DNA from: Chitinophagaceae bacterium UBA1931
Lineage (GTDB): Bacteria; Bacteroidota; Bacteroidia; Chitinophagales; Chitinophagaceae
Length of the DNA: 64,000 nt
Direction: 5' to 3'
Assembly: GCA_002337125.1 (NCBI GenBank)
Contig: DDFJ01000001.1
Location: forward strand, 967,342-1,031,341
Part shown: in pieces, positions 32,405-48,738 of the stretch
How the letters are laid out: each line of letters starts with the position of its first letter
Numbering within the stretch: position 1 is the stretch's first letter
The notes under the pieces: model-generated
What the model saw: the letters and a program-made list of their open reading frames with translations, nothing else
What the model was told of the DNA's origin: nothing
Database searches by the model: none
Position numbers and translations under genes: made by a program

Positions 32405-34633
32405 TTACTCCTGGAACACTTTTTTGAGATAGGCTGTATTGGCACCATAATTATACTTGGTGTCAGTTGGTTTTTTGGCATCACGGCTGCGTTCAATTAC
32501 CAGCCATCCGCTCCAACCCATTTCATCCAGTGTCTTTTTCACTTTGTACATATCGATCTGCGGATCGTTCTGCAGCCACACACTGTCTTTGTTGGTGGCA
32601 TGAATCATACTGATGCGGTCTTTGCCTAAAATTTTTAATTCGCTGATGAGATCCCTTCCTTCTTTTAACGGGTTGGAAAAGTTGAAATAGATTTTGATAT
32701 TGGGAGAACCGATTTCTTTCAGCAGCTGTACTTCTTCTTTTGCATTCAATGATGTTTCAATGCTGATGATGACACCTGCAGCTTCAGCCATTTTACCCAC
32801 CACTTTCAAACGGGCAACAACAGAATCACGAACGGAAGGATTTTTTTTGATATCACATTGCACACCTAATGGAAGGAAACCATATTTCACATTCATCAGC
32901 TTCATGGTTTTGATACAGTCTTCAATACTGCGGATGTATTCTTCTCTTCCGCAAAACGATTGTGCATAATAACCCGTCATTGCAAGACAAAAGATTTCAA
33001 CTTTATTTTCCTTTGCAGTTTTCAGGAATTGATTGCGCACAGTATCATTCAGCAACTGGTTATCAAATGTTGGTCTTGTGCCAAGTCCGCCCATATCAAC
33101 TTCTACACCATCAGCTTTTAGTTGAGCAGTTAATGTAATAGCACCAAGCTTTTGACGCTTGAGCAGCATCAGGTCAATCAAACCAATTTTATAGCGTTGA
33201 TTAGTTCTTGCCTTTTCAATTTCTTCAGCAAATACACGTTCAAGATTTTCAAATCCATGAATAGCATTAGCAGGAAGCTTTTCACCATTATCTCCAAACA
33301 CATACAAACTCTTTTCAGGTTCGATCGTGATTTTTGATTCATCTATTTTTCCTTCTGCATCCTGTACTGCTTTCAAATTCAGGTTAAGGTATTTTGCCAT
33401 GAAATTGTAAACAGCAATACGTTTATTAATTCCGAAATCATGTTTTTCTTCAGGCAAATGCACATTCGATACATTTTCCTGTTTGCCATACCAGCTATAC
33501 ATTTTCTGCAGGTAAAGAAAATCATGTTCAGGCATACGGTCTGTCCAATCACCTCCATCACTTACAATCAATTGCGGACGTGGCGCTGCCATTGCTGCCA
33601 GTTCCACATTATCTGTTCTTCCACCACAACTGTGAATATCCATTCCACTTTCACAAGGGCAACCACCATAGAAATAGGATGAAAGAGAAACAACAGGTGC
33701 AGAAAATTTAATGCGATCATCTAATGCAGTCATCAACACAGTATGACTTCCTGCTCCTGAACCACCGGTCATTGCAACACGACTTGTATCTGCATCTTTT
33801 TGTGACAGTAAATAATCAAGAATACGAATGCTTCCCAATGCCTGGATGGTCATTGATAAACTTCTGCGATGATCTTCGGGTTTAAACTGCAACAACGATT
33901 CGCCCCATGCAAACAAATCATAACTGAAAGCCATTGCTCCCATTTTTGCCAATGCTGCACAACGGTACTGGCAATCGGCACGGTAACGTTGTTTTTCCCA
34001 ATGACCATCTGGATTTAATATCACCGGAATTTTTCCTTTATACTTCAACGGTTTGTATAATGAACCATTCACCCACAAGCCGGGTAAAATTTCAATCGCA
34101 ATATTTTCAACTGTATAACCATCAAATACACGTTTGGGCGTAATGATTGGTTTGCTGTTGGGCGATGCAGGAAGATGTGTTAGTTGCAATGCTTCTTTTA
34201 AACAAGGCTTCAGATCCTGTTTACGTTTTTCCCATTCATCCAATGTTTTGTATTGTGCTGCAATACGGTCTAACTCTGCCCAGCCATCTTCAACAGACCA
34301 GCGGTAATATTCATACACACTGAGTTTATACTGTTTATCTTTTTCTTTCTTTGCTTTCAGTTCAAGCGGCTTCAGGATATTATCCAGTGTTACTTCCACA
34401 TCAGGCCTGTATTTCCATTCTGCATAAGTTACCTTTTTATTCACAACCATACTATCAGCATACTTGATCGTGATGCCATACTTTTTCTGTACATCATTCA
34501 ATATTTCTTTTAATGGTTTGACGTATTGATTGTCTGTATTCAATTGTGAAAATGAATTAAACCACAACGACACAAAAACACAAAGAAGCAGAATTGTTTT
34601 TTTACCCGATTGAAATGATCTTACCAATTGCAT
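32405..34633 (-). CDS. Secreted fusion protein: N-terminal alpha/beta-hydrolase (esterase-like) domain plus C-terminal xylose-isomerase-like TIM-barrel (sugar phosphate isomerase/epimerase) domain
   Basis: 742 aa with a signal peptide (ILLLCVFVSLWFNSFSQ). The hydrolase core has VAMTGGSGAGSH as nucleophile-elbow variant. From about residue 490, IGLIDLM...VEIFCLAMTG...VIISIETS...WSGWLVIERS matches AP_endonuc_2-type TIM barrels. Confidence 0.7.
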   Translation of the reverse strand: MQLVRSFQSGKKTILLLCVFVSLWFNSFSQLNTDNQYVKPLKEILNDVQKKYGITIKYADSMVVNKKVTYAEWKYRPDVEVTLDNILKPLELKAKKEKDKQYKLSVYEYYRWSVEDGWAELDRIAAQYKTLDEWEKRKQDLKPCLKEALQLTHLPASPNSKPIITPKRVFDGYTVENIAIEILPGLWVNGSLYKPLKYKGKIPVILNPDGHWEKQRYRADCQYRCAALAKMGAMAFSYDLFAWGESLLQFKPEDHRRSLSMTIQALGSIRILDYLLSQKDADTSRVAMTGGSGAGSHTVLMTALDDRIKFSAPVVSLSSYFYGGCPCESGMDIHSCGGRTDNVELAAMAAPRPQLIVSDGGDWTDRMPEHDFLYLQKMYSWYGKQENVSNVHLPEEKHDFGINKRIAVYNFMAKYLNLNLKAVQDAEGKIDESKITIEPEKSLYVFGDNGEKLPANAIHGFENLERVFAEEIEKARTNQRYKIGLIDLMLLKRQKLGAITLTAQLKADGVEVDMGGLGTRPTFDNQLLNDTVRNQFLKTAKENKVEIFCLAMTGYYAQSFCGREEYIRSIEDCIKTMKLMNVKYGFLPLGVQCDIKKNPSVRDSVVARLKVVGKMAEAAGVIISIETSLNAKEEVQLLKEIGSPNIKIYFNFSNPLKEGRDLISELKILGKDRISMIHATNKDSVWLQNDPQIDMYKVKKTLDEMGWSGWLVIERSRDAKKPTDTKYNYGANTAYLKKVFQE

Positions 34634-34647
34634 AATGAATGATTTTA

Positions 34648-36216
34648 TTATTCAGCAGAATAAATGACCTGACTTTTTTTACGTAACTCCTTCCAGCCAC
34701 TGATCAGCAAATTTCTATCCACTTCCTGTTTTGGAAAGAACAGGCTGGTGACATAACCGATCACCACAACTACAAGATGACTGTACACACCCAGCATTAA
34801 TTTATGTTGTTTGAAATTATAATTGCCCAGGTCAAGCAGCAAACGTTTTTCATTACCCAAACCAATTTTAGTAGATGTAAGCAATGCATACGCAGTGAAA
34901 ATAATACAGGCAATAATCCCGATTGTTACACCTTGCTTATTTGCTCTTGAACTGAATAGGCCTAAAAGAAATATTCCAGCAATACCACCGGAGAAGATTG
35001 CATACAATGTAAACACAATGCCCAATACACCTTCATCACCAGCAAGCAGATACAAAGCACCAATAGCAACAGCTAAAAAGCCAGCAATAAATACGAGCCA
35101 CTTACCCACTTTCAGGTATTCTTCATCTGTGCGTCCGGGACGGATTTTCTTGTAATAATCTTCCACACCAACTGCAGCAATACAATTTAAATCAGCACCA
35201 AGACTGCAGATAGCTGCAGATACCAGCGATGATAAAATCAAACCAACAACACCGGGCGGCAATTGTGATACGATGAAATGCGGGAACACAGCATCAGCCC
35301 TGATACCAGCAGGTAAAGGGTTCTGTTGATAAAACACAAACAAACCTGTGCCGATAAACATAAACAAAGCCCATACAGGAACAATTAAAAAAACACCCAT
35401 CAATGCGGCTTTGATTGCAGAACGATCTGACTTTGCTGTTAAATAACGTTGCACGATTGTCTGGTCAGTTCCGTATTTCTGGATGGCATAAAATATTCCG
35501 TTGATAGCCATTACCCAGAAGGAAAGTTTTGTAAAATTGAAATTATAAGGTCCGAAGCCGGTATGTTTATTTTCACTGGCAATTTTCCATACTTCAGCAG
35601 GCCCGCCATTAACAGAAAACAAAATAATGGCAAGACAGGCAATGCCACAGGCAAACAACATAAAACCCTGCAGTACATCCAGCCATATCACCGCTTCAAT
35701 TCCTCCCAGCAATGCAAGCACAATAATCGCTATTCCGATAATAAACAGGATGATCAATGTATTTACTCCCGTCATGTTTGACAAGGCTAACGATACAAGA
35801 AAAAACACCGTTCCCATTTTTGAAAAATGCGACAACACAAAACTGGTGGAACTATAGTATCGTGCAAACAAACCAAAACGCTTTTCAAAATATTCGTAAG
35901 TACTTAAACCAATTGCATGACGGAACAACGGAACCACAAACCAGATTAAACTCAGCAACACAATCGGCACCATCAAACCCTGCACCAGCAAAATCCAGTT
36001 CGATGAAAAACCTTCGCCGGGATAAGCAAGAAAAGTAATACTGCTGATGAGTGTTGCAAGTATGGACAAACCAATTGCCCATGAAGGCATTTTTCCTTTT
36101 GCAAGAAAATAACTGGAAGTTGATTTCTGTTTATGTGCAAAGCTGAAACCGAGGTACAGCACAATGCTGATGAAACTGAAAATAATAATGTAATCAATGA
36201 TGTGTAAATGATTCAT
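34648..36216 (-). CDS. Sodium:solute symporter (SSS family)
   Basis: 522-aa polytopic protein with FLAKGKMPSWAIGLSILATLISSITFLAYPG, typical of the SSF family. Confidence 0.9.
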   Translation of the reverse strand: MNHLHIIDYIIIFSFISIVLYLGFSFAHKQKSTSSYFLAKGKMPSWAIGLSILATLISSITFLAYPGEGFSSNWILLVQGLMVPIVLLSLIWFVVPLFRHAIGLSTYEYFEKRFGLFARYYSSTSFVLSHFSKMGTVFFLVSLALSNMTGVNTLIILFIIGIAIIVLALLGGIEAVIWLDVLQGFMLFACGIACLAIILFSVNGGPAEVWKIASENKHTGFGPYNFNFTKLSFWVMAINGIFYAIQKYGTDQTIVQRYLTAKSDRSAIKAALMGVFLIVPVWALFMFIGTGLFVFYQQNPLPAGIRADAVFPHFIVSQLPPGVVGLILSSLVSAAICSLGADLNCIAAVGVEDYYKKIRPGRTDEEYLKVGKWLVFIAGFLAVAIGALYLLAGDEGVLGIVFTLYAIFSGGIAGIFLLGLFSSRANKQGVTIGIIACIIFTAYALLTSTKIGLGNEKRLLLDLGNYNFKQHKLMLGVYSHLVVVVIGYVTSLFFPKQEVDRNLLISGWKELRKKSQVIYSAE

Positions 36217-36231: not shown

Positions 36232-36290
36232 CTCTCACAGATTTCTCTGATTAACACAGAAAAAAAATCTGTGAACATCTGTGCAACCTG
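36232..36290. repeat. CACAGAT intergenic repeat, extended copy with inverted units
   Basis: ctctcacagatttctctgattaacacagaaaaaaaatctgtgaacatctgtgcaacctg. The cacaga-A7-tctgtg part can form a hairpin. It occupies the 80-nt gap between the DUF1537 kinase stop and the SSS start. Confidence 0.7.
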
Positions 36291-36296
36291 TAAACT

Positions 36297-37415
36297 CTAT
36301 TCAAATATCTTTTTAACTTCTTCTGCCAATGGATAACTGCCGGGCTTTACAGTAATAAACCATCCACCTGCTTTCATCCGCACCACACCCCTGCTAAATT
36401 CATTTACTGGAATGAGCTGATGAATATTCATTTCATGAAACAAAGCCATAGCTGAAGAACCACCTTCAACCAATACTTCTTTCACCTGGTTTTGTTGCAG
36501 CAGTTTCTTTACCACTTTCGCCATTACAGAACGCAGTGTTACCGCTGTTATTCCTGCAGGGATTTGTGCTGCATCAAAACCAACAATGATTTTCTGTTCA
36601 CTGTTAATCATCTCTTTGCAATGCAAAAACCACTGCTCATCTTCTTCACCAGCTATCAGCTTTTCGCTGAGGTATGCAACCAGCTGCTTTTTTTCAGCAA
36701 CAGCTTTTACATAATTCACCGACTGATCATAGGCTGTGCCACACACATACATAAAAGGTGCTTGCAACTGTAGCTGCTGCTGATTTTTTTGCTGAAACTT
36801 TTTTGCAAGAAGAGCTGTATAAAAATCACCTGCACCTGCAAGTACAAAAGCTGAATCAACTTTATCAGCCCATTGCTTCACATCAGCTTCAGTAGATGCT
36901 TCTCCAACAAAAATTTTATCGGCAGACAATTCATCTGTCGATTTCACAACTGCAACAGATGCATCATTCAATATCTGTTCAACAAGCGAACTCTTTGCAG
37001 GAAATTCAGGATCGGCTGCAAAACCTGTTTCCGCAACAGGCACACCCTGCACATAATAAATTCCGTTGCTGATGATTCTTCCCAATGAAGGATTCGCAGG
37101 TAGTACAAATGCTTTTGTTAATCCTGCAAGCCTCATCTGCAGTTTCAGTTCTTCTGTAACATAACCACGCAGAACCGAATCAATTTTTTTATAAATGAAA
37201 ACAGGTTTTAATTCCAGCAACTGTTTTAAAACCGTTGAAGTAATTTCTAAAGCTTTTTCTTTTTCAAACGAACGGCTGTCGGTTGATACAATCAGCACAT
37301 CAGCTGTTGTTGCAGCAACATCACCTGTACATAGTTCAGCTGTCAGTCCGTAACGCAGACTGATACCAGCTAACTCTGCTGCACCTGTAAAATCATCTGC
37401 AATAACGGCTATCAT
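36297..37415 (-). CDS. Four-carbon acid-sugar kinase (DUF1537 family; DtnK/DenK/OtnK-like)
   Basis: 372 aa. The N-terminus IAVIADDFTGAAELAGI is the hallmark DUF1537 motif. Its start directly abuts the PdxA-family gene (37415/37416). Confidence 0.85.
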   Translation of the reverse strand: MIAVIADDFTGAAELAGISLRYGLTAELCTGDVAATTADVLIVSTDSRSFEKEKALEITSTVLKQLLELKPVFIYKKIDSVLRGYVTEELKLQMRLAGLTKAFVLPANPSLGRIISNGIYYVQGVPVAETGFAADPEFPAKSSLVEQILNDASVAVVKSTDELSADKIFVGEASTEADVKQWADKVDSAFVLAGAGDFYTALLAKKFQQKNQQQLQLQAPFMYVCGTAYDQSVNYVKAVAEKKQLVAYLSEKLIAGEEDEQWFLHCKEMINSEQKIIVGFDAAQIPAGITAVTLRSVMAKVVKKLLQQNQVKEVLVEGGSSAMALFHEMNIHQLIPVNEFSRGVVRMKAGGWFITVKPGSYPLAEEVKKIFE

Positions 37416-38441
37416 TTATTTATGCTTTGACAGTTGTACCGCACTTTCAATTGCAAATATCATTGCATCTGCACTGGCAATTCCTTTTCCAGCAATTTCA
37501 AATGCAGTTCCATGATCAACTGATGTGCGTATAATTGGAAGACCTAATGTAATGTTCACACCTTTCACACTATCCATCTGTTGTTTTTCTGCATTCCATT
37601 TAAAGCCTGCAAGTTTAAACGGTATATGCCCCTGGTCGTGATACATTGCTACCACACCACCATATGCACCCATTGCTGCTTTTGCAAACATGGTATCAGG
37701 CGGCACAGGTCCTTCTACATCATAACCCAAACGTTTTGCTTCTTCAATTGCAGGAGCAATCTCTTCAATATCTTCTGTACCAAACAAACCATTATCACCC
37801 GAATGAGGATTCAATCCGGCAACACCAATTTTTAAATTTGTTTTTCCCAAACGTTTTAATCCATCAACAATCAGTTCTATTACCTGCACAATACGTTCCT
37901 TCTTCACCAGGTCGCAAGCCTGTCTCAGCGATACATGCGTACTTACATGAATCACATTGATATTATCTTCCACCAGCAGCATTGCATATTTTTTTGTATT
38001 GGTGAAATGCGCATAAATTTCTGTGTGACCTGCAAAATGATGACCTGCTTCGTTGATTGATTTTTTGTTGATTGGTCCTGTAACAGTTCCATCAACTTCA
38101 TTTGCCAGCGCCAGTTCAATTGCTTTTTTCACAGCCTGGAAAGACGCTTCACCACACATAGCATCAATTTTACCAAACTGCAATTTGCTGATGTCAGTAA
38201 TATTCAAATCAAACACATCAATTGTACCCAACTCAAATTTTGCATCAGCTACTTTTGAAACAGCATTCACTTTTGCATTGAGATGAAGCAGATCAATAAT
38301 CTGCTGAAACACCACAGCATCACCAACAAGCAATGGCTTGCAGATTTCATGAATATGCGGTTGCAATAATGCTTTCACTCCTATTTCCGGCCCTATACTT
38401 GCCGGATCACCCATTGTAATTGCGAGAATTGGTTTACTCAT
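37416..38441 (-). CDS. pdxA2: PdxA-family NAD-dependent 4-phospho-acid-sugar dehydrogenase (decarboxylating), PdxA2-type
   Basis: 341 aa with ILAITMGDPASIGPEI, GLNPHSGDNGLFG and YHDQGHIPFK. Pairing with a DUF1537 kinase is the PdxA2 context. Confidence 0.85.
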   Translation of the reverse strand: MSKPILAITMGDPASIGPEIGVKALLQPHIHEICKPLLVGDAVVFQQIIDLLHLNAKVNAVSKVADAKFELGTIDVFDLNITDISKLQFGKIDAMCGEASFQAVKKAIELALANEVDGTVTGPINKKSINEAGHHFAGHTEIYAHFTNTKKYAMLLVEDNINVIHVSTHVSLRQACDLVKKERIVQVIELIVDGLKRLGKTNLKIGVAGLNPHSGDNGLFGTEDIEEIAPAIEEAKRLGYDVEGPVPPDTMFAKAAMGAYGGVVAMYHDQGHIPFKLAGFKWNAEKQQMDSVKGVNITLGLPIIRTSVDHGTAFEIAGKGIASADAMIFAIESAVQLSKHK

Positions 38442-38542
38442 TTCGTCTTTATTTTTAAAACCCCGTCAGCGATTGAAAACCTTGATGGCGGTTTATATCT
38501 TATTATTTTTTGTAATCAGCTTTTGTGCTTCTTAATTACTCC

Positions 38543-38559
38543 TGTTGCGTCGCACACTT
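38543..38559. repeat. Copy A of the conserved 17-mer TGTTGCGTCGCACACTT
   Basis: Exact 17/17 match with 58692-58708. Both copies lie in intergenic gaps of minus-strand operons. The core TGCGTCGCA is palindromic. Confidence 0.6.
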
Positions 38560-38584
38560 GTACGGCAATAACTCTATTCAACTT

Positions 38585-39508
38585 TTATAAACTAACAACG
38601 GGGTTTGATTGTAATGCTGCAAGCTTTTCAATCAAATCTGCGGCTTCTTCCTTACTTAAATTCTGCAGCGGAGGCATTACATATTCTTCACACAAACCTT
38701 TACTACGCATCAGCACTTTCAATGCCCATAAACTTTCACCTAATGTTTTTCCAGCTTGATAAAGATTGCCATACACATCACTCAGCTTCTGCATTTCGTA
38801 AGCTTTCGCATGATCTCCTTCTTCAACAGCATTCAACATCAGTTCATAAATTTCAGGAAGCAGGTTACCTGTACTTGGAATCAATCCATCACTTCCTCCA
38901 ATCAATGCATCAGCCGATTTTGCTGCCCAGCCAAGAAAATGCCCGAAGTCTTCACGATCCTTCCACAATTCAAGCGATTGTTTTAAACGTTCATCACTGC
39001 GTTCAGAATCTTTTGTAGCAATAATATTCGGGTGATGACTTAACTCATCAATCAGCTGCAACGGGATACTCATGTGCGTGGTTGCAGGAATATTGTAAAT
39101 AATTAACGGCAACGGAACTGCATCAGCCAGTGTTTCAAAATAAACTTTCATCTGTGTTTCCGTCAATGCATAATACGAAGGCAAGGTTGCTGCCAAAGCA
39201 TCTACAGCATGATCAGCACAAAACTTTGCAAACTCAATTGATTCAGCAACAATGTTGGATGAAATGCCGGCATATAAAATAGTACCTGCTTGTTTATTTT
39301 TTTCTGCAGCAATCACATACTGTTCTTTCAACTCTGTTGAAATGGATGCAGATTCACCTGTAGTACCAAGTATAAACGGTGAAACCTTATGTGTATAAAA
39401 CTGCTGAAATATTTTTTGTACTGCAGTTTCATCAATATGATATGCAGCTGTCAATGGTGTTACAGCCGGAACAATGACCCCTGTAAACTTTTTATTCTTC
39501 TTCATCAA
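38585..39508 (-). CDS. DapA/DHDPS-family class I (pyruvate-dependent) aldolase
   Basis: 307 aa with GVIVPAVTPL, ILGTTGESASIS and IIATKDSE (Schiff-base Lys context). Confidence 0.85.
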   Translation of the reverse strand: MMKKNKKFTGVIVPAVTPLTAAYHIDETAVQKIFQQFYTHKVSPFILGTTGESASISTELKEQYVIAAEKNKQAGTILYAGISSNIVAESIEFAKFCADHAVDALAATLPSYYALTETQMKVYFETLADAVPLPLIIYNIPATTHMSIPLQLIDELSHHPNIIATKDSERSDERLKQSLELWKDREDFGHFLGWAAKSADALIGGSDGLIPSTGNLLPEIYELMLNAVEEGDHAKAYEMQKLSDVYGNLYQAGKTLGESLWALKVLMRSKGLCEEYVMPPLQNLSKEEAADLIEKLAALQSNPVVSL

Positions 39509-40656
39509 TAAGCTGATTTAAAAATTGCCACTGCATCTTCTTCCTTAATTTCTCTCGGATTGTTTTTCAGCAGCCTTTGTATTTTCATTGCTTCCTGTGC
39601 CATTTGCGGAATGGTATCTTCTTTCACTCCCACTTCCCTCAACGTTGAAGGAATGCCACAGGCAGCATTTAACTCTTTAATTTTTGCAACACCTGCTTTT
39701 GCAGTAGCCCATGCATCACTCTGCCGTTCACAACCCAATGCCACTGCAACATCTGCATAACGATCAGGCGAAGCAACAATGTTGTATTCCATTACATAAG
39801 GCAACAGCACTGCATTGGATAAACCATGTGCCAGGTGATACATGCTTCCCAAAGGATACGACAACGCATGAACACCAGCAGTGTTCACCGGTCCAAGACA
39901 AAAACCTCCGTATAAACTTCCCATCGCTACTTTTTCCCTTGCTTCAACATCTGATCCGTTTTTAACTGCAGTAACAATGTTTGATGCAATTAAGCGCATG
40001 CCTTCGTATGCAAACATATCAATGAATGGCTGTGCGAATTTGTTGGTGTAAGCTTCCAGGCAATGTGTTAAAGCATCCATGCCGGTTGCAGCTGTAATGG
40101 AAGGAGGAACAGAAACCGTCAGTAACGGATCAACATAGACCACGTCAGGAACCAAAAAAGGACTGATGATTCCTTTCTTCTGGTTATCTGTATCATCAAC
40201 CAGGATTGCATTGGGCGATACTTCACTTCCTGTACCTGAAGTGGCAGGCACACAGATTAATTTTTTTGTTCTTCCTTTCAGCAAACCAATCCCAACATAT
40301 TCTCTTAACTGCTGTTGATTGTCTAATTGTGCTGCAACAAGCTTTGCCACATCCAGCACACTTCCGCCACCAATACCAATCACCACATCCGGATTAAACG
40401 GCTCCACTTTTTTCATCAGCTTTTCAAAATCACTGAAGTAAGGTTCGGCAACAATCGAAGTATCAATCATCACTTCAATTGATTGTTGTTTGAAAACAGC
40501 AACAAATTCATTGACGGTTTTCAGCAACGGTTCAATAGTTGCAACAAATATTTTTGAAGGATGATCTGCAAGTACATCATCAGCCAGTTGCGGCAATGTG
40601 CCATTGCCAACCACTAACTTACCGGGAAAAATAATTTTGAATGGATTGACAGACAT
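39505..40656 (-). CDS. Iron-containing (group III) alcohol dehydrogenase
   Basis: 383 aa with GIGGGSVLDVAK, the CVPATSGTGSE motif and the metal-binding His region DALTHCLEAY. Confidence 0.9.
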   Translation of the reverse strand: MSVNPFKIIFPGKLVVGNGTLPQLADDVLADHPSKIFVATIEPLLKTVNEFVAVFKQQSIEVMIDTSIVAEPYFSDFEKLMKKVEPFNPDVVIGIGGGSVLDVAKLVAAQLDNQQQLREYVGIGLLKGRTKKLICVPATSGTGSEVSPNAILVDDTDNQKKGIISPFLVPDVVYVDPLLTVSVPPSITAATGMDALTHCLEAYTNKFAQPFIDMFAYEGMRLIASNIVTAVKNGSDVEAREKVAMGSLYGGFCLGPVNTAGVHALSYPLGSMYHLAHGLSNAVLLPYVMEYNIVASPDRYADVAVALGCERQSDAWATAKAGVAKIKELNAACGIPSTLREVGVKEDTIPQMAQEAMKIQRLLKNNPREIKEEDAVAIFKSAY

Positions 40657-40665
40657 ATTGATCGT

Positions 40666-41649
40666 TTAATAAATCTTTTCAGAAAAGTTAACCGGAATCA
40701 GTGAAGGAATATCCACCTGTTTAATCTGCAACCTGTCGCACCACATCTGGAAACGATCATAAATCAGGTCGAGTGTTTTGCGCTGATCAGGAGTTAACTT
40801 GGTTGCAACTGCACGACTGATTGTACGTACAGGCAATCCACGTTTCTGTAAAAAGTATTTTGAACTCATGGGATAAGCCACATGAATCAACGGATCAACA
40901 CTTGTCAATTGTTCCTGCAGCCATGCAACATCATCCTGCTTTTCAGGATTGGTTGCATTGTTCACCATCCACACCATTACTTCGGGATAAAAGTTTCCTG
41001 AAATAGATGACATTCCTTTTGCACCCTGCAGCATACTGAAATGTGTATTAGGTGTATGTGCATCATAAAACTCAAGTTTTGTATTGCCTGTTTCTTTCAG
41101 CACATCTAATTTGCCTTTTACATTTTCATGCGTGATGGAAGTATCCTTATGATAAATCAAACGATTTGCAGAAAGTAACTGGCGGAATGTATCAGCAGGA
41201 ATAATGCGCTTGTAAGGAGCCGGGCACTCATACATACCCATCGGGATATTTTCTGTAAGCTTGAATATCTGTTCAAAATTGTGCAGCAGTACATCTTCAC
41301 CATCTTCTTCTTTTGCAAAGTGACCGGTGATCATGATCGCAGCATCAATTCCTGTATCATGAATCTTTTTGGTAAACTCTGCTTTATCAGCAATGGTTAA
41401 ACCAAACGAACCGGTTGCAACAATCGGCACACGACCATTTACTTTATTGACAATATGCTGTGTTAATTCAAGACGCTCATCTTCGGTAATGCTGAACATT
41501 TCACTGCTGAGGCAGTTGGCAAAAAAACCTTTCACACCTGCAGCCAGGTAAAACTCCACAAGAATACTTACCACATCAAGATCAACTTTAGCTTTCAGGT
41601 CAAACGGTGTAATCATCACCGGCACAAACTTACTTTCACTGTTATTCAT
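40666..41649 (-). CDS. Second DapA/DHDPS-family class I aldolase (divergent)
   Basis: 327 aa with PVMITPF, RVPIVATGSF and IYHKDTS (Lys). The usual GTTGE is replaced by CLSSEMF, which indicates a distinct subfamily. Confidence 0.8.
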   Translation of the reverse strand: MNNSESKFVPVMITPFDLKAKVDLDVVSILVEFYLAAGVKGFFANCLSSEMFSITEDERLELTQHIVNKVNGRVPIVATGSFGLTIADKAEFTKKIHDTGIDAAIMITGHFAKEEDGEDVLLHNFEQIFKLTENIPMGMYECPAPYKRIIPADTFRQLLSANRLIYHKDTSITHENVKGKLDVLKETGNTKLEFYDAHTPNTHFSMLQGAKGMSSISGNFYPEVMVWMVNNATNPEKQDDVAWLQEQLTSVDPLIHVAYPMSSKYFLQKRGLPVRTISRAVATKLTPDQRKTLDLIYDRFQMWCDRLQIKQVDIPSLIPVNFSEKIY

Positions 41650-41751
41650 TGCTATATGGCATTGATTTTAGAAAGAAAAAATTACAAAACTCAATACTAC
41701 AACTGTTCTGTTTTCTGCAAATGGAACATCCAACTATTTTAATGGAAGATG

Positions 41752-43362
41752 TTACAATTGCACATCACCACAGAAATGAACCTTGATACCCAGCTCGGCC
41801 AATGCAGCTGCTTTGATACGGCAGGCTTTATGAGCCGTTGCTTCATCAGGTGTATACACAACATGTATGTGATTTGCTTTATGTTTTGCCATCATCTGGT
41901 TTTGCGAAACTCCTTTCACAATTCCATGCATGATGGGCCATTGTGGATTTGTTGCATTCCAGCGGCGTTGTGTTTCTGCTTCGGGCAGATCAGCAACTTC
42001 ACCTACACCCAGGTCGCAATGAAGTTCATCTTTCACCAGGTAAATACGGCTCCATACAATTGAACCAGGTTTGCTGTTTCCTTTCAACGTACCACCACCT
42101 TTAGGGAAAAACATTGGCGGCTGACGGTCACTGCTTGCACCGGCATATCCATTAATGAAATGTGCTGCAGGTGCTGCACCTGAAATTAAAAACACCCACA
42201 CGAAAGCATCAGTCTTTTCATCTTTGTAATATTGTCCCCAACGCAGATCATGCAAGGTATTTTCTCCACTCATACCTAATTCATTCCACAATTTGTAAGT
42301 GATAAGCGAATCAAGTCCTGCACATTCATCCACTTCATTAAAGTGAGGAATAGCTTTTCCAGCAAACAATTCTTTTCCGTTTGTATCAAACACCGGAGGA
42401 CGTTCAGTGTTATTCAGTAAACCTTCCACCAGATCACTTGCTGCACAAATATCTTTCAGTCCCTGCTGGTATTGAATGCCGATTGTTGCACATCCAAACC
42501 AATCAGCCAAACGTACTGCAGCGATATACATTTTACATTGCTCAAGTGTTTGTTCTTTTGTCAGTTCAGTTGCATAATCAGTGCCCCAGTTAAACTTCAT
42601 TCCTTTATCAAGCAGCCATTGCAATACCGCATTTGCTTCTTCATCTTTCACCGTTAACATCTCTGCAAACAATGCACTCTGGCTGAGACGTTCTTTAAAG
42701 ACGCCTGTTTCATGTAAAACAGAATCAGGGATAATGGCATTATACATTCCCATACAACCTTCATCAAACACACCCATGATTGCTTTTTTCTTACGGAATG
42801 CTTTTGCAAATGCTCTTCCCTGCTCTTCTTCCTGCAAAGGAATTTTGATGAGATCAAAATCTTTTACATGACTGCAGTCGTGTGTAATCTTTCCTGTTTG
42901 TAACCATTCGGTCAAACCATCTAAGAAAAATGCATCATCAAAATTTTCACTCCACAAGGTGCTGTAGTTAACTCCTGCTTTTGTGAGTGAACCATTTAAA
43001 TTCAACAGACCAACAAGACCGGGCCATTCACCACTCCAGTTAGCAACTGTTAAGATGGGTCCTTTATGTGTGGTTAATCCTGCAAGCACATGATGACTGT
43101 ATTGCCATAAACTTTCTGCCACAATCAGTGCTGCATTTTCATCAATATGGCTGAACACTTCCATGCCCATTTTCTGTGAATCGATCAAGCCATGTTGCTT
43201 TGCAGCATCATAAGCATGTGTACGTTTAACGGTATAACCTTTTTTTGCCAATACTGCACTGAGTTGTTTTTCCATTTGTTCCTGTGCAGGCCAGCAGGTG
43301 ATATTTGCTGAAGGACGGGAATCGCCACTGGCAACTAAAATGATTTCTTTTGTATTGTTCAT
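41752..43362 (-). CDS. L-fucose isomerase (FucI)-superfamily sugar isomerase, about 540-aa subfamily
   Basis: 536 aa. The C-terminal pattern [19 protein letters not shown]...[15 protein letters not shown]...[10 protein letters not shown]...[10 protein letters not shown] parallels E. coli FucI (TRVNIIKG...LQIAEG...RTNSTWPTTWF...ANHGVLTIGH...IPVCMHN). The alignment was made from memory only. Confidence 0.6.
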
Positions 43363-43379
43363 ATAAAATGATTGTATTA

Positions 43380-44936
43380 TTAAGAAGATTGTTTTTTGAA
43401 TTTAGTAAACAGTACACCCACTAGAAAAATGGAAAGTGTACCCACAACGATGATCATGTTTTTATGTAAAGATGATTTTACAAATGAATATTCAGCTGGA
43501 ATACGATCAGAAAAAGTCATCCATAAAATCACGATCACGCCAGCAAGGGTGGCAATGATGGCTTCTGTGTTTTTTGTTTTTTTGCTGATGAGTCCCAGTA
43601 GAAACAGTCCAAGCATGCCACCTGCAAAAATGCCGCTCAGCTCCCACCATATATCCAACAAGCTTTTTGCACCAATCATGGCAAGACCTGTTGTTAAACC
43701 AATCAAACCAAACACAACTGTTGAAACATGCAGCAGGAACAATTTTTGCTTATCCGTTATTTCAGGTTTAAAATATTTCTGGTAAATATCAACTGTAAAA
43801 ACAGTTGCCGATGCATTCATGTTGCTGCTGATGGTACTCATTGCGGCCGATAGCAATGCTGAAACAATTAAACCAACCAAACCTGTGGGAATATTATTCA
43901 CCATAAAAAACGGCAACACTTTATCGCCATAATCAGAAGGTTTGAATGATGCAGCAAGTTGATGAATCTGCTCCTGTGTTGCTGATACACCTAAACGCTC
44001 TGCAGCCACCTGCAGTTTAACGGGATCAATTAATCCCGGTTGTGATTGATAAAATGCATACAGTGCTGTGCCAATCACAAAAAACAAAAACGATGCAGGT
44101 ACATAAATCCACACACATAACCAGATGGACTTACTTGCCTGTTTTGAGTTTTTAGCTGTATGGTAACGCTGAATATAATTCTGGTCCATACCAAAATTAT
44201 TCAGATTGATAAAGAAGCCATACAGGAGAATCACCCAGAAAGTTGATTGTGTAAAATCAGGTTTAAAACTGCCGAGACTTATTTTATGATCTGCCGTTGC
44301 AATCGCTGTGATCTTTGAAATACCACCGGGAATTTCTTTGATCACTAAAAATAAAATGAGCAATGCACCGAGTGTTTTAATCACACCTTGTGCAACTTCT
44401 GTCCATATCACAGCTTCCATTCCACCAAGAACGGTGTAGATGATGATACAGATACCCATTACAATCATAATGGATTGCATGCTGAAACCGGTTAATGCCT
44501 GCAAGCTTAATGCAATACCGAAAAAGATAGAGCCCATCCGTGCAAACTGCGTCAGCAAAAAACAAACAACTGCATATGTTCTTGCCCATGGGCCAAAACG
44601 TTTTTCAAGATTGGTGTATGCAGATATTTCACCTGTGTTTCTGTAAAATGGTACAAAATATTTTGATGCAAACCATGCAGCCAGCGGCATGGATATACTG
44701 AACACAAATGCATTCCAGTTGCTGCCAAATGCTTTGCCCGGCACTCCAAGAAATGTGTTACTGCTGAGAAAAGTTGCATAGATGGACAAACCAATTGCCC
44801 AGCCGGGAATTTTTCCTGAAGCTTTGGTAAACTGGTCGCTGTTTTTATTCTTACGTGAAAAATAAAAACCGATGCCTATCATCGCAAGCATATAACAGGC
44901 AATCACCGCAAGATCAATAAATGGCAAGTTGTGCAT
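43380..44936 (-). CDS. Sodium:solute symporter (SSS family)
   Basis: 518-aa polytopic protein with [30 protein letters not shown]. It is a paralogue of 34648-36216. Confidence 0.9.
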
Positions 44937-44946
44937 TTTGAAAACC

Positions 44947-47900
44947 TTAATCGTTAGTAGTTATACCGGTTATTTTTAATGCTCCCGGCCATTCTTTATT
45001 TACAATTTCTTTCAACTCCAGTTTAGAAGGATCTAACACAACATGTTTTATCCGTTCTCTTCTCCACGTATAAACAATGTGTACCATTCCATCTTTTGTT
45101 TGTATAACTGATGGGTATGAATACTGGCTGATTGGAGAATCTTCCAGTACAATAGCTGCATACCATGTTTTACCATCTTTACTGATTGCAACATTCAGCG
45201 GAGTGCGTGGTCCTTTCCCTTTGTACCATGTTGAGTCGGGTAATGTGTGATTATATACCAGTAACTGTCTTCCGTCTTTCAACGTTACTGCATCTGTTCC
45301 TGAATTATTATTGGGCAATGCGGAAGGTTTCATTGCAGACCATGTTTTACCGCCATCATAACTCCAGCTTTCGTTGATGGTTGTATTACGGCTGCGGCAT
45401 AAAATTTGCAAACGGCCATCTTTATATTTTAAAATACTTGGCTGTATTGCCTCAATTGTTTTTCCATCGTTGATGTCTTCACTCTTTGTCCATGTTTTAC
45501 CATAATCCGTAGTGAATTCAATATGCGCTTTCCAACCTGTTTTTTCTGTACTGCTTGGACAAAGCAAAACTCCATTGATGAGTTCAGGTTTGTTTTTAAT
45601 TGGTCCTAAAAATCCTTCAGGTAATGCTTCACGTTTGCTCCATGTACGACCATTGTCTTTGCTGCGCATCATCCATCCCGTCCAGCCGGCAACGTTAGGT
45701 CCTATTTTGTAGAACAATAACAATTCTCCGTTGGGCGCATAAAACAAAACAGGATTATAACAGGCATAACGCACTGAATCATTCATCACACCATCAGCAA
45801 CTTTTTCAGGAACAGTCCATTTACCTTTTACCAATCGGCTTGTCCATAAACAAACATCACTGTAACCTTCTTTTGTTCCGCCAAACCATGCAGCAATTAA
45901 ACCATCCGGTGTTTCAGCAATGGTGGAAGCATGGCTTTCAGGAAACGATGCACGGTTGAAAATAAATTCATCTGTCACCACTCCTTTCCTGTATTTAAAT
46001 GTTGATACAAAATGATAACTGCCTGAACCGATTTCAAACACAGCAGTTCTTCCTTCCATACCAATGAGCTTTACGCCGTTTGCCTTTGCTGCAGCAAGAT
46101 TATTTTCCATTACATCCTCACCTGAAGATGCAGGAATATAAACCACTGCTGAACTGTTTGCAGGAACAGTTATATCCCAGGTAAACTGCTGGTTCGTTTT
46201 CTTCCAGCTGCTCTTAATCGTTCCATAGAGTGTATTGTAAGATGCGGTTGCAAAATTCAACCCATCAATATTTTCGGGTTTCATGATAATCTTTTTGAAG
46301 CCCACTTCTGTTTCATCTGATTTAATACCTGCAACATGTTCATATAACCAGATCAGCAGATCACCAAGAATCATCACATGGTTTTGTGAGTTCATCCATG
46401 GATTTGCTGTATTACCATTCCACAACTCCCAGATAGTTGTTGCACCACTCTCAGCCATATAACCCCAGCTGGGATATGTTTTGTTTGATGCAAGTGTGAA
46501 TGAAATATCGGGATGCTGAAATTTCGTTAACGTTCTCATCAGCCATTGTGTACCTATTACACCTGTGCTGATATGCATATTTTTTTCAATCCTGATTTTT
46601 GTGTAGATATTATTGAATACTGCTTCTTTGTTCGCATTATCCACCATATCAAAATACAAAGGCAGTAAGTTAGACGTGATGCTGTTATTGGCGTAATATT
46701 TTTTCGAAGCATTGTAAAACTTATTGTTGAATGCCTGTTTCACATTTACAGCAAGAGATGCATATTCATTTACATCCTGCTCGTTATGACTGATCTTTGC
46801 AAATTTCTGCATCAATCCAAGAAGGTAATAATAGTATGATGAAGCGATCAGTTCTCCATCTGTATTCAGCATGCTGTCTTTTGCATGAATGAGTTCAAGA
46901 CTTTCGGGAGGTACACACCAATCACCATAGCTGTCTCTTGAAATGAGATAGTTCTTCATGTACTTTGTTTCCATCATCTTCATCCACTTACGCATGGATG
47001 GATAATGTTTTACAACCGATGCAGCATCACCAAACTGCCTGTACAGCATATCAGTGACTGTTAAATAAGTTCCGGGCCAGGTAACATTATCAGTATAATA
47101 TTTTTTGTAGGCAGGAACAATATCAGGAATAGTTCCTTCTTCAGTTTGGGCATCCTGCATATCGTTCAGCCATTTGGCATAAAGCTTAGCATTGTCAAAC
47201 AAAAAACTTTCGCCATAACAACCAATAGCATGATCGCCCAACCAGGGCTGACGTTCATCACGCTGCGGACAATCAACCGGCATTCCTTTGTAGTTGGATG
47301 AAATTCCCCACCATGCATTTTTCAATACTTTGTTGATGATGGTATCAGATGTCTGCAGTGAACCGGTTGTAGCAAATCCGTCATACACAACCATTCCTTC
47401 AAAATCATTTACAGTGGGAACACCCGGATAACCGGTGATTTCAACAAACCTGAAACCGTTGTAAATAAATGATGGATGCCAGACCTCCACACCAGTTCCT
47501 TTCAACGTGTAGATATTTGTTTGATAGGCGCTGCGAAGATTGGCAGTGTACAAGGAATCGTTTGGCTGTATGCTTTCCGCAAAACGCATGGTTACTTTTG
47601 TTCCTGCATTGCCTTTTACTTTCAGTTGTAACCAACCTGCAAAGTTTTGGCCCATATCAAGAACGTAAGTTGTAGTGCCTGTTTTTTTAATTGATAAAGG
47701 TTTGATGGTTTTCATCACACGCATTGGCTCATTCATCTGTGCACGAAGCACACCATCAGGAGCTTTTACAATTTCAGGTGTTAACCATTTCGAGTCATTG
47801 TAATTAATATTATTCCATCCAGTCAGTTCTTTTGTTGCATCATATTCTTCGCCATCGTATTCATTGGCTGTGCGTACAGGTCCATCCACATTCAGTTTCC

Positions 47901-48738
47901 AGCTTTCATCTGTTACAATGATTTGCTTTGAACCATTTGCATATTCAATTTCCAACTGAAGCAACATTTTAGGAAAACCGAAATTCAATAAACGATCGGT
48001 TTTAAAATTCTGGCGCATATTAAAGAAACGGCCATTGCCCAACGTTGCAGCAACAGCATTCTTTCCTGCACGCAGCATTGTTGTTACATCGTATGTATTG
48101 TACTGAACTGTTTTACGATAATCGGTTGGTGATGGAGTTAATACATTATTACCAACTTTCTTTCCGTTAATAAAGAGTTCGTACAAACCAAGACCAACGA
48201 TATAAACTTTCGCTGATTTGATTGTTTGTGCAGAAGTAAATTCTTTACGCAGGTAACGGGCCGATAATCTTGCATGCATCACCATGCTGTCCCATGCGGA
48301 TGCTTTATCATAACCAATCCATTTCCCTTTCCAGTCATCTTTGTTCAGCAAACCAATGCTGAAGTAAGCAGTTTTGCTCCATTCACTTGTTCCTTTATTC
48401 GTAACGATTTTTACTTTCCAATAACAGGTTGTTTTGCTTTGCAATGTTTTACCATTGTAAACAACATGCACCGACCGACCAGAACTGATTGTTCCTGAAT
48501 TCCATAAATCACCAATGTTCTGATTCAGCATTTCAACAGATGAAGCAACAATCAACTGGTACGACTGCTGCTGAACATTTCTTTGAGTTGAATTGATCTG
48601 CCAGCTTAAGCGTGGTTGTGTTACATCAATCCCCAATGGGTTTACCAGCATTTCGCAGTGGAGATCAGTAACAGACACTTGTGCCTGCATTGAAAGCACA
48701 CTCAAAAATCCAATCAGTAAAACAAAAATCCTTTTCAT
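44947..48738 (-). CDS. GH78 alpha-L-rhamnosidase fused to a C-terminal sialidase-fold (BNR/Asp-box) domain
   Basis: 1263 aa with a signal peptide. GH78 motifs are LHCEMLVNPLGIDVTQPRLSWQI and GMPVDCPQRDERQPWLGD. From about residue 895 (nt about 44950-46060) there are four Asp-boxes: SKDNGRTWS, TTDYGKTWT, SYDGGKTWS and SKDGKTWY. This region also has FPESHASTIAETPDGLIAAWFGG. There is a 1-nt TAATG stop/start overlap with the GH2 gene. Confidence 0.85.
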   Translation of the reverse strand: MKRIFVLLIGFLSVLSMQAQVSVTDLHCEMLVNPLGIDVTQPRLSWQINSTQRNVQQQSYQLIVASSVEMLNQNIGDLWNSGTISSGRSVHVVYNGKTLQSKTTCYWKVKIVTNKGTSEWSKTAYFSIGLLNKDDWKGKWIGYDKASAWDSMVMHARLSARYLRKEFTSAQTIKSAKVYIVGLGLYELFINGKKVGNNVLTPSPTDYRKTVQYNTYDVTTMLRAGKNAVAATLGNGRFFNMRQNFKTDRLLNFGFPKMLLQLEIEYANGSKQIIVTDESWKLNVDGPVRTANEYDGEEYDATKELTGWNNINYNDSKWLTPEIVKAPDGVLRAQMNEPMRVMKTIKPLSIKKTGTTTYVLDMGQNFAGWLQLKVKGNAGTKVTMRFAESIQPNDSLYTANLRSAYQTNIYTLKGTGVEVWHPSFIYNGFRFVEITGYPGVPTVNDFEGMVVYDGFATTGSLQTSDTIINKVLKNAWWGISSNYKGMPVDCPQRDERQPWLGDHAIGCYGESFLFDNAKLYAKWLNDMQDAQTEEGTIPDIVPAYKKYYTDNVTWPGTYLTVTDMLYRQFGDAASVVKHYPSMRKWMKMMETKYMKNYLISRDSYGDWCVPPESLELIHAKDSMLNTDGELIASSYYYYLLGLMQKFAKISHNEQDVNEYASLAVNVKQAFNNKFYNASKKYYANNSITSNLLPLYFDMVDNANKEAVFNNIYTKIRIEKNMHISTGVIGTQWLMRTLTKFQHPDISFTLASNKTYPSWGYMAESGATTIWELWNGNTANPWMNSQNHVMILGDLLIWLYEHVAGIKSDETEVGFKKIIMKPENIDGLNFATASYNTLYGTIKSSWKKTNQQFTWDITVPANSSAVVYIPASSGEDVMENNLAAAKANGVKLIGMEGRTAVFEIGSGSYHFVSTFKYRKGVVTDEFIFNRASFPESHASTIAETPDGLIAAWFGGTKEGYSDVCLWTSRLVKGKWTVPEKVADGVMNDSVRYACYNPVLFYAPNGELLLFYKIGPNVAGWTGWMMRSKDNGRTWSKREALPEGFLGPIKNKPELINGVLLCPSSTEKTGWKAHIEFTTDYGKTWTKSEDINDGKTIEAIQPSILKYKDGRLQILCRSRNTTINESWSYDGGKTWSAMKPSALPNNNSGTDAVTLKDGRQLLVYNHTLPDSTWYKGKGPRTPLNVAISKDGKTWYAAIVLEDSPISQYSYPSVIQTKDGMVHIVYTWRRERIKHVVLDPSKLELKEIVNKEWPGALKITGITTND

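Follow-up and report, generated by a model that had tools for sequence, protein, structure and literature searches.

What becomes of the rarest sugars of rhamnogalacturonan II (RG-II) once a bacterium has taken the polysaccharide apart is the question raised by a stretch of 64,000 nucleotides from Chitinophagaceae bacterium UBA1931 (assembly GCA_002337125.1, contig DDFJ01000001.1, positions 967,342 to 1,031,341). We refer to this stretch as the window and give all coordinates from its first letter, unless a related locus is named. The primary cell walls of vascular plants contain RG-II, which has been called the most complex of all known glycans. Its depolymerization has been mapped enzyme by enzyme; what happens to its rare acids has yet to be worked out. 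It holds exactly two 2-keto-3-deoxy ulosonic acids, 3-deoxy-D-manno-octulosonate (Kdo) and 3-deoxy-D-lyxo-heptulosarate (Dha). In the window, a block of RG-II glycosidase genes is followed on the same strand by eight genes encoding six enzymes and two transporters. On balance we lean, by a narrow measure, towards reading this region as the cytoplasmic finishing module of an RG-II polysaccharide utilization locus (PUL), built from two units in the style of sialic acid catabolism, one for Kdo and the other for Dha. The first-pass annotation had proposed a scheme for the two acids; its enzyme families, RG-II context and stereochemistry stand, and its seven genes fall into two units.

All eight open reading frames (ORFs) lie on the minus strand, and the ORF list of the window confirms the coordinates and tight packing first described for them. 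Unit A comprises SSS1, a sodium:solute symporter (43380..44936); FucI536, a 536-aa isomerase of the FucI/AraA superfamily (41752..43362); and DapA1, a divergent class I aldolase of the DHDPS/NAL family (40666..41649). Unit B comprises an Fe-dependent alcohol dehydrogenase (Fe-ADH; 39505..40656), DapA2, also a class I aldolase of the DHDPS/NAL family (38585..39508), a PdxA2-type NAD-dependent decarboxylating dehydrogenase (37416..38441), a short-form DUF1537 four-carbon acid-sugar kinase (36297..37415), and a second sodium:solute symporter, SSS2 (34648..36216). Gaps of 17 nt, 102 nt and 9 nt separate SSS1 from FucI536, FucI536 from DapA1 and DapA1 from Fe-ADH, respectively. The Fe-ADH stop and the DapA2 start overlap by 4 nt (with TTG as the start; starting at the ATG of the next codon would shorten the overlap to 1 nt), and spacing is 143 nt between DapA2 and PdxA, 0 nt between PdxA and the kinase, and 80 nt between the kinase and SSS2. 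Directly 5' of the module, 10 nt from SSS1, stands a gene for a GH78 alpha-L-rhamnosidase fused to a BNR_2 (GH33-like) domain (44947..48738, minus strand) with a full Pfam GH78 domain set and a BNR_2 match at E 3e-90. Scans against Pfam and NCBIfam returned the families originally assigned to the module, with the C-terminal domain of the kinase and the isomerase recovered through predicted structures. No signal-peptide-like N-terminus was seen in the first 50 residues of the module enzymes; the GH78 fusion and an esterase-like fusion protein encoded after SSS2 each carry one. A scan of 30000-49500 gave fewer promoter-like sites than shuffled sequences, using a sigma-70 consensus that is unsuited to Bacteroidota, and no intergenic terminators of note in the same interval. 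Scanning the full window for Rfam families and tRNAs gave no matches.

Does this arrangement hold in other genomes? Each module protein has hundreds to thousands of homologues, and the genes run in the same order on dozens of independent contigs; the arrangement is not due to chance. The nearest relatives of the kinase, and of DapA2 among its homologues of at least 70% identity, are annotated as Lacibacter and Chitinophagaceae. We collected 83 loci anchored on the kinase from a metagenome scan, together with three look-ups, taking 10-kb flanks around kinase homologues of 38-61% identity and counting each gene only where the contig reaches far enough. PdxA was present in 63/63 assessable loci (median identity 89%), DapA2 in 54/54, Fe-ADH in 45/45 and SSS2, straight after the kinase, in 46/46. 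DapA1 was found in 36 of 39 loci, SSS1 in 29 of 33, an upstream GH78/GH33 (fused or as separate GH78 and BNR genes) in 27 of 31, the esterase-like fusion after SSS2 in 36 of 40, and FucI536 in only 4 of 33. The order GH78/GH33 > SSS1 > [isomerase] > DapA1 > Fe-ADH > DapA2 > PdxA > DUF1537 > SSS2 > esterase fusion is invariant, and overlaps of stop and start codons are frequent within unit B across loci. Locus L082, from the cultivable Lacibacter species L. sediminis, shares the order of the window. A divergent group whose kinases are 38-41% identical to that of the window has the order Fe-ADH > DapA2 > PdxA > DUF1537 > SSS2. SSS1 and DapA1 are absent from L158, L159, L161 and L164, where the contig extends sufficiently upstream, and also from L128; L155 is cut off upstream. 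DapA2 is the sole aldolase of the unit-B-only loci L155-L164. Since unit B exists without SSS1 and DapA1, it must be DapA2 that feeds the dehydrogenase, the kinase and the PdxA-type enzyme.

The reciprocal view was obtained from 81 loci anchored on the isomerase (80 from a scan of GTDB representative genomes plus the window's own contig, L001), again with 10-kb flanks. DUF1537 or PdxA was found within 10 kb of the isomerase in 0/81 of these loci. Beyond the window's contig, an Fe-ADH was seen in one locus, as a 34%-identical antisense match, and a DapA2-like gene in four of the 81. The first-pass annotation had treated the seven genes from SSS1 to the kinase as one set; this did not survive the comparison, and one conserved seven-gene unit is ruled out by the separate occurrence of units A and B. 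Unit B holds together strictly as a set of five genes, unit A more loosely, and the two are separable.

Two loci from Chitinophagaceae, in Phnomibacter (L165) and Aridibaculum (L166), carry the whole module including the isomerase. Both have a gene of the fumarylacetoacetate hydrolase (FAH) family between the isomerase and DapA1 (L165 11875-12711; L166 11739-12578), and Aridibaculum has in addition an aldehyde dehydrogenase (13770-15362) between DapA1 and Fe-ADH; these insertions may point to an alternative oxidative branch. In the unit-B-only locus L164, SSS2 is followed (7052-12940) by a 363-aa RhaT, a fusion of a class II aldolase and a short-chain dehydrogenase/reductase, an L-rhamnose isomerase-like TIM barrel and an FGGY kinase, and a 363-aa ORF also follows SSS2 in L155, L158 and L159. 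In L161 and L164 unit B is preceded by a divergent gene for a DUF5060 and apiosidase-like (GH140-like) protein.

We next consider what unit B might act on, starting with its kinase and dehydrogenase. The kinase has 372 aa, belongs to a short form of 357-391 aa, and matches the N-terminal, sugar-binding domain of DUF1537 (SBD_N, PF07005) at 122 bits and the C-terminal, nucleotide-binding domain (PF17042) at 19 bits, below the cut-off of 28.3; relatives at 50-63% identity have both Pfam domains. Identity to solved DUF1537 members is 16-21%. An AlphaFold model (predicted local distance difference test, pLDDT, 92.4) gave full-length matches only to DUF1537 crystal structures (TM-score up to 0.82, E <= 1e-19), and the motifs ADDFTGA, DSRS, KIDSVLRG, EGGS and KPGSY are conserved in the family alignment. 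Judged by this predicted structure, the protein is a member of the DUF1537 four-carbon acid-sugar kinase family with its two-domain fold intact. Its best NCBIfam model is D-threonate kinase (NF047819), at 126.3 bits against an equivalog cut-off of 450. The possibility that the kinase is specific for a 3-oxo-tetronate, raised by the first-pass annotation as a threat to its own proposal, is not favored by the corresponding model, which scored lower (56.8 bits) and likewise stayed below its cut-off. Gene context agrees, as the kinase adjoins a PdxA2-type gene in the window and such a gene is present in 63/63 assessable related loci, a context of the D-threonate kinase type, and no class II aldolase-type decarboxylase, as in the OtnC/OtnI contexts of oxo-tetronate routes, was seen in unit B of the annotated loci.

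The PdxA protein (Pfam PdxA, 349.9 bits) aligns with the PdxA2 structure 2hi1 at 289 bits and with the D-threonate 4-phosphate dehydrogenase structure 6e85 at 279 bits, compared with 168 bits for E. coli PdxA and 165-169 bits for the E. coli and Salmonella PdxA structures together. By sequence it is thus classed as a catabolic PdxA2 or D-threonate-4-phosphate dehydrogenase type rather than the housekeeping enzyme. It passes the generic pdxA model TIGR00557 (340 > 290) and falls below the D-threonate-4-phosphate dehydrogenase model NF002891 (330 < 583). Because kinase and PdxA both remain under their equivalog cut-offs, D-threonate is to be taken as a putative substrate; of the D-threonate route originally assigned to the pair, what holds is that the best and closest models are of the D-threonate type. 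The kinase also diverges much faster than the abutting PdxA (median identity 50%, range 38-61%, versus 89% over loci L082-L164). The pair recalls the DtnK and PdxA2 pathway for D-threonate, with a DUF1537 kinase abutting a PdxA2-type dehydrogenase and with dihydroxyacetone phosphate (DHAP) and CO2 as the expected end products. It differs from that pathway in its short-form kinase, in the scores of both enzymes below the equivalog cut-offs and in its position, flanked in Bacteroidota PULs by an aldolase/ADH pair on one side and a SiaT-like transporter on the other.

The two aldolases may link this pair to ulosonic acids. Both match DHDPS (PF00701, cut-off 22.1), DapA2 at 132.8 bits and DapA1 at 96.3 bits, and they share 22% identity with each other. 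In a MAFFT alignment with E. coli NanA (K165/Y137) and DapA (K161/Y133), the Schiff-base lysine and the catalytic tyrosine are kept in DapA1 (YHKDTS, MYECP) and in DapA2 (ATKDSE, IYNIP). DapA2 retains GTTGE and YNIP, and DapA1 shows an unusual CLSSE where GxTGE is expected. At the position of E. coli DapA's YNVPSRT, DapA1 reads YECPAPY, and in DapA2 the DHDPS residue Arg138, which serves to bind aspartate semialdehyde, is replaced (YNIPATT). Neither protein reached the dapA equivalog TIGR00674 (146.6 bits for DapA2 and 84.3 for DapA1, cut-off 206.15) or the nanA equivalogs NF003164 (108 and 45, cut-off 281) and TIGR00683 (87 and 22, cut-off 382). Judged by residues and cut-offs, both are assigned to the class I pyruvate aldolase family, and neither to true DapA or NanA.

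These scores also bear on the simplest explanation of the locus, namely that housekeeping genes for lysine (dapA) and vitamin B6 (pdxA) synthesis and a generic ADH lie beside a PUL by chance. Homologues are indeed labeled '4-hydroxy-tetrahydrodipicolinate synthase' or 'dihydrodipicolinate synthase family protein', and the generic pdxA model is passed. Yet both aldolases fall short of the dapA model and DapA2 lacks Arg138, the PdxA is far closer to catabolic PdxA2, and dozens of loci show one unvarying order of these genes with DUF1537, Fe-ADH, SSS and RG-II glycosidases. We regard a chance assembly of housekeeping genes as highly improbable.

The remaining members of unit B, and the transporter of unit A, were assigned by family. 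Fe-ADH matches PF00465 at 124.8 bits and PF25137 (ADH_Fe_C) at 194.6 bits; its nearest solved relatives are 1,3-propanediol oxidoreductase (212 bits) and the lactaldehyde reductase FucO (169 bits), and it reached no NCBIfam equivalog, scoring 249 against 523 for the lactaldehyde reductase model. The two transporters match Pfam SSF (E 1e-40 and 1e-45) and pass TIGR00813 (cut-off 184), SSS1 with 226 bits and SSS2 with 233 bits. For each the closest solved relative is 5nv9, at 239 bits for SSS1 (runner-up 157) and 265 bits for SSS2 (runner-up 160). We take 5nv9 to be the sialic-acid symporter SiaT of Proteus mirabilis, and on sequence both transporters are classed as SiaT-like sodium symporters. 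RG-II thus offers two 2-keto-3-deoxy acids and the module two SiaT-like transporters and two NAL-like aldolases, a correspondence that we count in favor of the two-acid reading.

Could the kinase and PdxA2 instead scavenge free D-threonate or another tetronate on their own, with the two aldolases redundant and Fe-ADH serving as a lactaldehyde or glycolaldehyde reductase for rhamnose or fucose? D-threonate kinase and PdxA2 reportedly make up a complete two-step pathway and so would be self-sufficient as a pair, and NCBIfam and PDB entries name both enzymes. FucO is among the relatives of Fe-ADH, GH78 rhamnosidases adjoin the module, and an L-rhamnose cluster (RhaT-RhaEW-RhaI-RhaB) follows unit-B-only loci. 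Such a route has no need of an aldolase inside the unit, however, and the one transporter of the unit is of the sialic-acid type rather than a tetronate type. Moreover, 45-63 loci show Fe-ADH > DapA2 > PdxA > DUF1537 > SSS2 in this order without exception and with translational coupling, including those that have no rhamnose genes close by. We therefore consider independent tetronate scavenging improbable.

If DapA2 instead cleaves a ulosonic acid, the stereochemistry of the D-threonate route restricts which one. We re-derived this by hand, and the configuration first worked out for C5 and C6 of Dha holds. In the D-lyxo acid C4 is left, C5 left and C6 right, so that cleavage leaves OHC-C5(L)-C6(R)-COOH; after reduction and renumbering from the carboxylate, C2 is left and C3 right, which is D-threonate. 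Conversely, if the non-pyruvate half gives D-threonate when its aldehyde is reduced, the parent must be the lyxo 3-deoxy-heptulosaric acid, that is, Dha. Unit B would then work as follows. GH143 and GH142 would free Dha from side chain D and SSS2 would import it; DapA2 would split it into pyruvate and a threo-configured C4 aldehydo-acid, which Fe-ADH would reduce with NAD(P)H to D-threonate. The DUF1537 kinase would convert D-threonate to 4-phospho-D-threonate, and the PdxA2-type enzyme would oxidize and decarboxylate this to DHAP and CO2. The net conversion, Dha + ATP to pyruvate + DHAP + CO2, would be redox-neutral, since the hydride spent by the ADH is regained at the PdxA2 step. In this scheme, as in that for unit A below, each substrate, the direction of Fe-ADH and the acid given to each transporter are proposed from family, gene order and chemistry.

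Another acid sugar of plants might fill the same place, most plausibly the RG-II constituent aceric acid (3-C-carboxy-5-deoxy-L-xylose). Fe-ADH would then reduce the aldose, the kinase would phosphorylate the new primary alcohol of an alpha-substituted tetronate, and the PdxA2-type enzyme would oxidize and decarboxylate the product, yielding a deoxy-ketose phosphate. This would accommodate the scores of DUF1537 and PdxA below the D-threonate cut-offs and the kinase as the fastest-evolving gene of unit B, and in the literature searched we found no described catabolism of aceric acid. Enzymes of the DUF1537 and PdxA families also act on branched, apiose-derived acids. A 2026 JBC paper mentions ApnO-OiaK for D-apionate. 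The scheme leaves no role for DapA2, however, which is present in 54/54 loci and is the sole aldolase where unit B stands by itself: aceric acid is not a 2-oxo-4-hydroxy acid and so is no direct substrate for a class I pyruvate aldolase. The SiaT-like transporter, too, suits a ulosonic acid better, and no RuBisCO-like protein of the known apionate routes is among the annotated genes of the window and related loci. That unit B serves aceric acid or a further acid sugar seems to us a rather unlikely account, and we retain Dha as the preferred substrate.

For unit A, the isomerase was the least familiar protein. FucI536 stays below the gathering score of both Pfam domains, narrowly so for Fucose_iso_C (29.1 versus 29.3) and more clearly for Fucose_iso_N1 (21.6 versus 28), and it had no NCBIfam match and no PDB sequence match at E <= 1. 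Its AlphaFold2 (AF2) model (pLDDT 82.5; predicted TM-score, pTM, 0.87) was compared with solved structures using Foldseek, and all 41 matches with E <= 1e-10 are L-fucose, D-arabinose or L-arabinose isomerases. The best of these, 4c20, has E 7.5e-20 and a TM-score of about 0.5, and identity to such isomerases is 14-16%. Its membership of the FucI/AraA superfamily, with the three-domain fold, is thus confirmed at the level of the modeled fold only. In the family alignment E343/D345/E346, H371/D372 and H479/H494/H498 are invariant. The family is large, with at least 8000 homologues and at least 595 confirmed matches in species-representative genomes, and its conservation is unusual, with 60-70% identity across Bacteroidota, Verrucomicrobiota, Ignavibacteriota, Acidobacteriota, Chloroflexota, Armatimonadota and Latescibacterota.

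Around the isomerase, a DHDPS-family aldolase was found in 22 of the 81 loci, mostly together with an SSS; 18 loci have a DapA1-like protein (36-44% identity) and four a third DHDPS lineage. These DapA1 homologues adjoin SSS, FucI536, ribulokinase and BNR proteins in Pedobacter, Hymenobacter and Cytophagales. In Bacteroidota the core consists of SSS followed by the DHDPS-family aldolase, together with an AraC regulator, the isomerase, ribulokinase and BNR proteins. Ribulokinase lies near the isomerase in 13 loci from other taxa, mostly Bacteroidota, and directly downstream of it in most; a representative scored 635 bits against the NCBIfam equivalog cut-off of 428, and no L-ribulose-5-phosphate epimerase was noted in the Bacteroidota loci with ribulokinase. 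BNR proteins 46-51% identical to the GH33-like domain of the window occur in five isomerase-anchored loci. Genes for GH95, GH2, GH140, GH43-like and GH143 proteins are also near the isomerase in Bacteroidota, with GH95 flanking it in Pedobacter and GH143 in Hymenobacter. A ribulokinase without an epimerase, found with a sialidase-fold enzyme, a SiaT-like transporter and a NAL-like lyase, suggests a pentose product, which fits the cleavage of Kdo to D-arabinose.

From this pattern of genes we propose, for unit A, that the secreted GH78-GH33 fusion would strip rhamnose and free Kdo from side chain C (Rha-alpha1,5-Kdo), that SSS1 would import Kdo and that DapA1 would cleave it to pyruvate and D-arabinose. 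The FucI/AraA-fold isomerase, facultative in this lineage, would turn D-arabinose into D-ribulose, and a ribulokinase, encoded beside the isomerase in other Bacteroidota, would form D-ribulose-5-phosphate. The reaction proposed for DapA1, Kdo <-> pyruvate + D-arabinose, is that of Kdo aldolase (3-deoxy-D-manno-octulosonate aldolase, EC 4.1.2.23), an activity described in the 1960s to which, to our knowledge, no gene has been assigned; the candidate would be a divergent DHDPS-family member with CLSSE replacing GxTGE. No ribulokinase was found in the window. Its FGGY kinase at 27158-28633 was considered and rejected as the missing enzyme, as it passes the GlpK glycerol kinase subfamily model and sits with a split transketolase. 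A Weimberg-type oxidation of D-arabinose via DapA2 was likewise rejected for lack of a sugar dehydrogenase, lactonase or dehydratase.

The isomerase might alternatively serve L-fucose or L-galactose derived from RG-II, with the unit A aldolase acting on another ulosonic or 2-keto-3-deoxy acid. L-fucose is a substrate of FucI-family enzymes, and L-fucose isomerases head the list of fold matches. GH95 flanks the isomerase in Pedobacter, the isomerase gene is absent from most unit B loci, and in Verrucomicrobiota and others a class II aldolase and a rhamnulokinase- or fuculokinase-like kinase lie downstream. The ribulokinase of the 13 mostly Bacteroidota loci passes its cut-off, however, which indicates a pentulose product, and it is accompanied by SSS, a DHDPS-family aldolase and GH33-like BNR proteins, with no L-ribulose-5-phosphate epimerase noted in the Bacteroidota loci. 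We judge the L-fucose or L-galactose assignment unlikely. Compared with the E. coli route for D-arabinose and L-fucose through FucI/FucK/FucA and the D-arabinose isomerase of Bacillus pallidus (3a9r, one of the solved fold relatives of FucI536), the module shares the fold superfamily and the proposed conversion of D-arabinose to D-ribulose, and in Verrucomicrobiota the succession of isomerase, class II aldolase and kinase genes parallels fucIKA. Unlike these enzymes, FucI536 is only 14-16% identical to its FucI-type relatives and has 536 aa instead of about 590, and in Bacteroidota the isomerase is coupled to ribulokinase, not to fuculokinase and aldolase.

The RG-II context of the module was examined through the glycosidase genes. 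The upstream block on the same strand, already recognized in the first reading of the window, was confirmed by family scans and encodes the GH78+BNR_2 fusion, GH2, GH142-like, BT_1020-type GH143, GH63-like and GH43-like proteins, a GH140 apiosidase and a DUF6298 protein. The GH143-like protein (53121-54944, minus strand) combines a BT_1020-type beta-propeller (Pfam Beta-prop_BT_1020, E 1e-116) with a sialidase-like carbohydrate-binding module (Sialidase-like_CBM, E 5e-62), and its gene is overlapped by that of the GH142-like (alpha/alpha)6 protein (51521-53131, minus strand; MGH1-like_GH, E 3e-84). Both lie about 8 kb upstream of SSS1, on its strand. Going by BT1020 of B. thetaiotaomicron, we assume that GH143 and GH142 act on the Araf-Dha side chain D. 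GH33 has been named as the family of the RG-II Kdo hydrolase (PMC11214529). Across related loci the flanking genes include GH2, GH142, GH28, GH141, GH140 and GH143, and a GH142-like gene lies at the edge of the syntenic Phnomibacter locus. The scenario in which homologous clusters occur mainly away from pectin or RG-II glycosidases is thus not what we see; they adjoin them.

Set beside sialic acid (nan) clusters, the module is alike in its sialidase-fold glycosidase (BNR_2), SiaT-like SSS, DHDPS/NAL lyase with a Schiff-base lysine and further processing of the aldose. It is unlike them in that its aldolases fail the nanA cut-offs and there is no N-acetylmannosamine (ManNAc) kinase or epimerase; in their place are a FucI/AraA-fold isomerase (with ribulokinase in relatives) or a chain of ADH, kinase and dehydrogenase. 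In addition, nan clusters belong to the foraging of host glycans, whereas the module lies in a PUL for plant pectin RG-II. The RG-II PULs of B. thetaiotaomicron share with this one GH78, GH33-like, GH2, GH140, GH142, GH143 and GH43-like enzymes, but here the PUL continues with genes for transporters and enzymes of the rare acids. We know of no such catabolic module in the B. thetaiotaomicron PULs.

Several observations weigh against our interpretation. Known RG-II degraders are reported to secrete Kdo, not to use it: according to a 2026 preprint by the group that solved the degradation of RG-II (Ndeh et al.), B. thetaiotaomicron secretes D-Kdo, most of the Flavobacterium strains tested release D-Kdo and D-apiose, and for other gut microbes D-Kdo pathways have yet to be confirmed. 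The glycosidase that regularly adjoins the module is the Kdo-side GH78/GH33, and the Dha-side GH143 lies about 16 kb from the kinase, outside the 10-kb flanks within which the kinase-anchored loci gave no GH143 match. Neither the kinase nor the PdxA reaches its D-threonate equivalog model, and the FAH-family hydrolase and aldehyde dehydrogenase inserted in some relatives have no role in the scheme. On the Kdo side, the isomerase is missing from 29/33 unit-B loci, leaving the fate of D-arabinose there unexplained; the DapA1 homologues that stand beside the isomerase in other genera have no more than 36-44% identity, and in four isomerase loci the aldolase belongs to the third lineage. Finally, the isomerase of Verrucomicrobiota has a class II aldolase and a rhamnulokinase-like kinase downstream of it, an arrangement that fits L-fucose equally well.

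Further genes flank the module and the glycosidase block. After SSS2 lies the gene for a 742-aa fusion (32405..34633, minus strand) of an esterase-like alpha/beta-hydrolase and a xylose-isomerase-like TIM barrel, with a 71-bit match to AP_endonuc_2, a weak match to the glucuronoyl-esterase family GCE_fung, a GGSGAG motif and no NCBIfam match. A role as a cytoplasmic pathway enzyme was rejected in view of its signal-peptide-like N-terminus, and it probably acts on a glycan outside the cytoplasm. Directly downstream of the module, a second sugar pathway is encoded on the minus strand (27158-32105), with a 473-aa isomerase of the Fucose_iso_C type that weakly matches the NCBIfam model for the sulfoquinovose isomerase SftI, a split transketolase (29804-30634 and 28770-29732) and, nearby, the GlpK-model kinase discussed above. 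A transketolase-dependent route for apiose is said to exist, and these genes could provide such a route for another RG-II sugar such as apiose. At the head of the glycosidase block (58733-63590, minus strand) are the 1038-aa DUF6298 protein and a 549-aa protein without a family match. The latter is 60-71% identical to the products of genes in RG-II-type loci of Pedobacter and Hymenobacter (L008, L009 and L012), adjoining GH140 in L008 and L009, and is likely an undescribed component of RG-II degradation. At 12001-26000 lies a capsule or exopolysaccharide region with genes for a GT2 glycosyltransferase and a sugar transferase, and with a Wzi-like protein just beyond (25437-27074); its GC content of 0.30-0.33, compared with 0.38-0.41 in the rest of the window, may indicate horizontal acquisition.

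Full-text literature searches returned no gene assignments for the catabolism of Dha or Kdo, or for Kdo aldolase, in agreement with the first-pass annotation, which was aware of no gene-level pathway for Dha. The enzyme families are all known; what would be new is their substrates and the joining of a nan-like front end to the D-threonate pathway. We put forward tentatively, at a little less than an even chance, that for both RG-II ulosonic acids these are the first pathways at the level of genes, with DapA1 as the Kdo aldolase, DapA2 as a hitherto unknown Dha aldolase feeding the D-threonate kinase/PdxA2 route through Fe-ADH, and the 536-aa isomerase as a representative of a large, uncharacterized family of D-arabinose (or L-fucose) isomerases in at least seven phyla. 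As a conserved operon with a complete, redox-balanced logic, the module offers six soluble enzymes and two transporters as an entry point for experiments. If the proposal is true, it would provide genes for the orphan EC 4.1.2.23, a new specificity in the NAL/DHDPS family, and annotation for thousands of proteins now labeled 'dihydrodipicolinate synthase', 'PdxA' or 'fucose isomerase'. Plant Dha would be a natural, physiological source of D-threonate. The module would further serve as a marker for soil and rhizosphere bacteria that mineralize pectin fully as opposed to cross-feeding, and would explain how some soil Bacteroidota could consume the Kdo excreted by Bacteroides and Flavobacterium.

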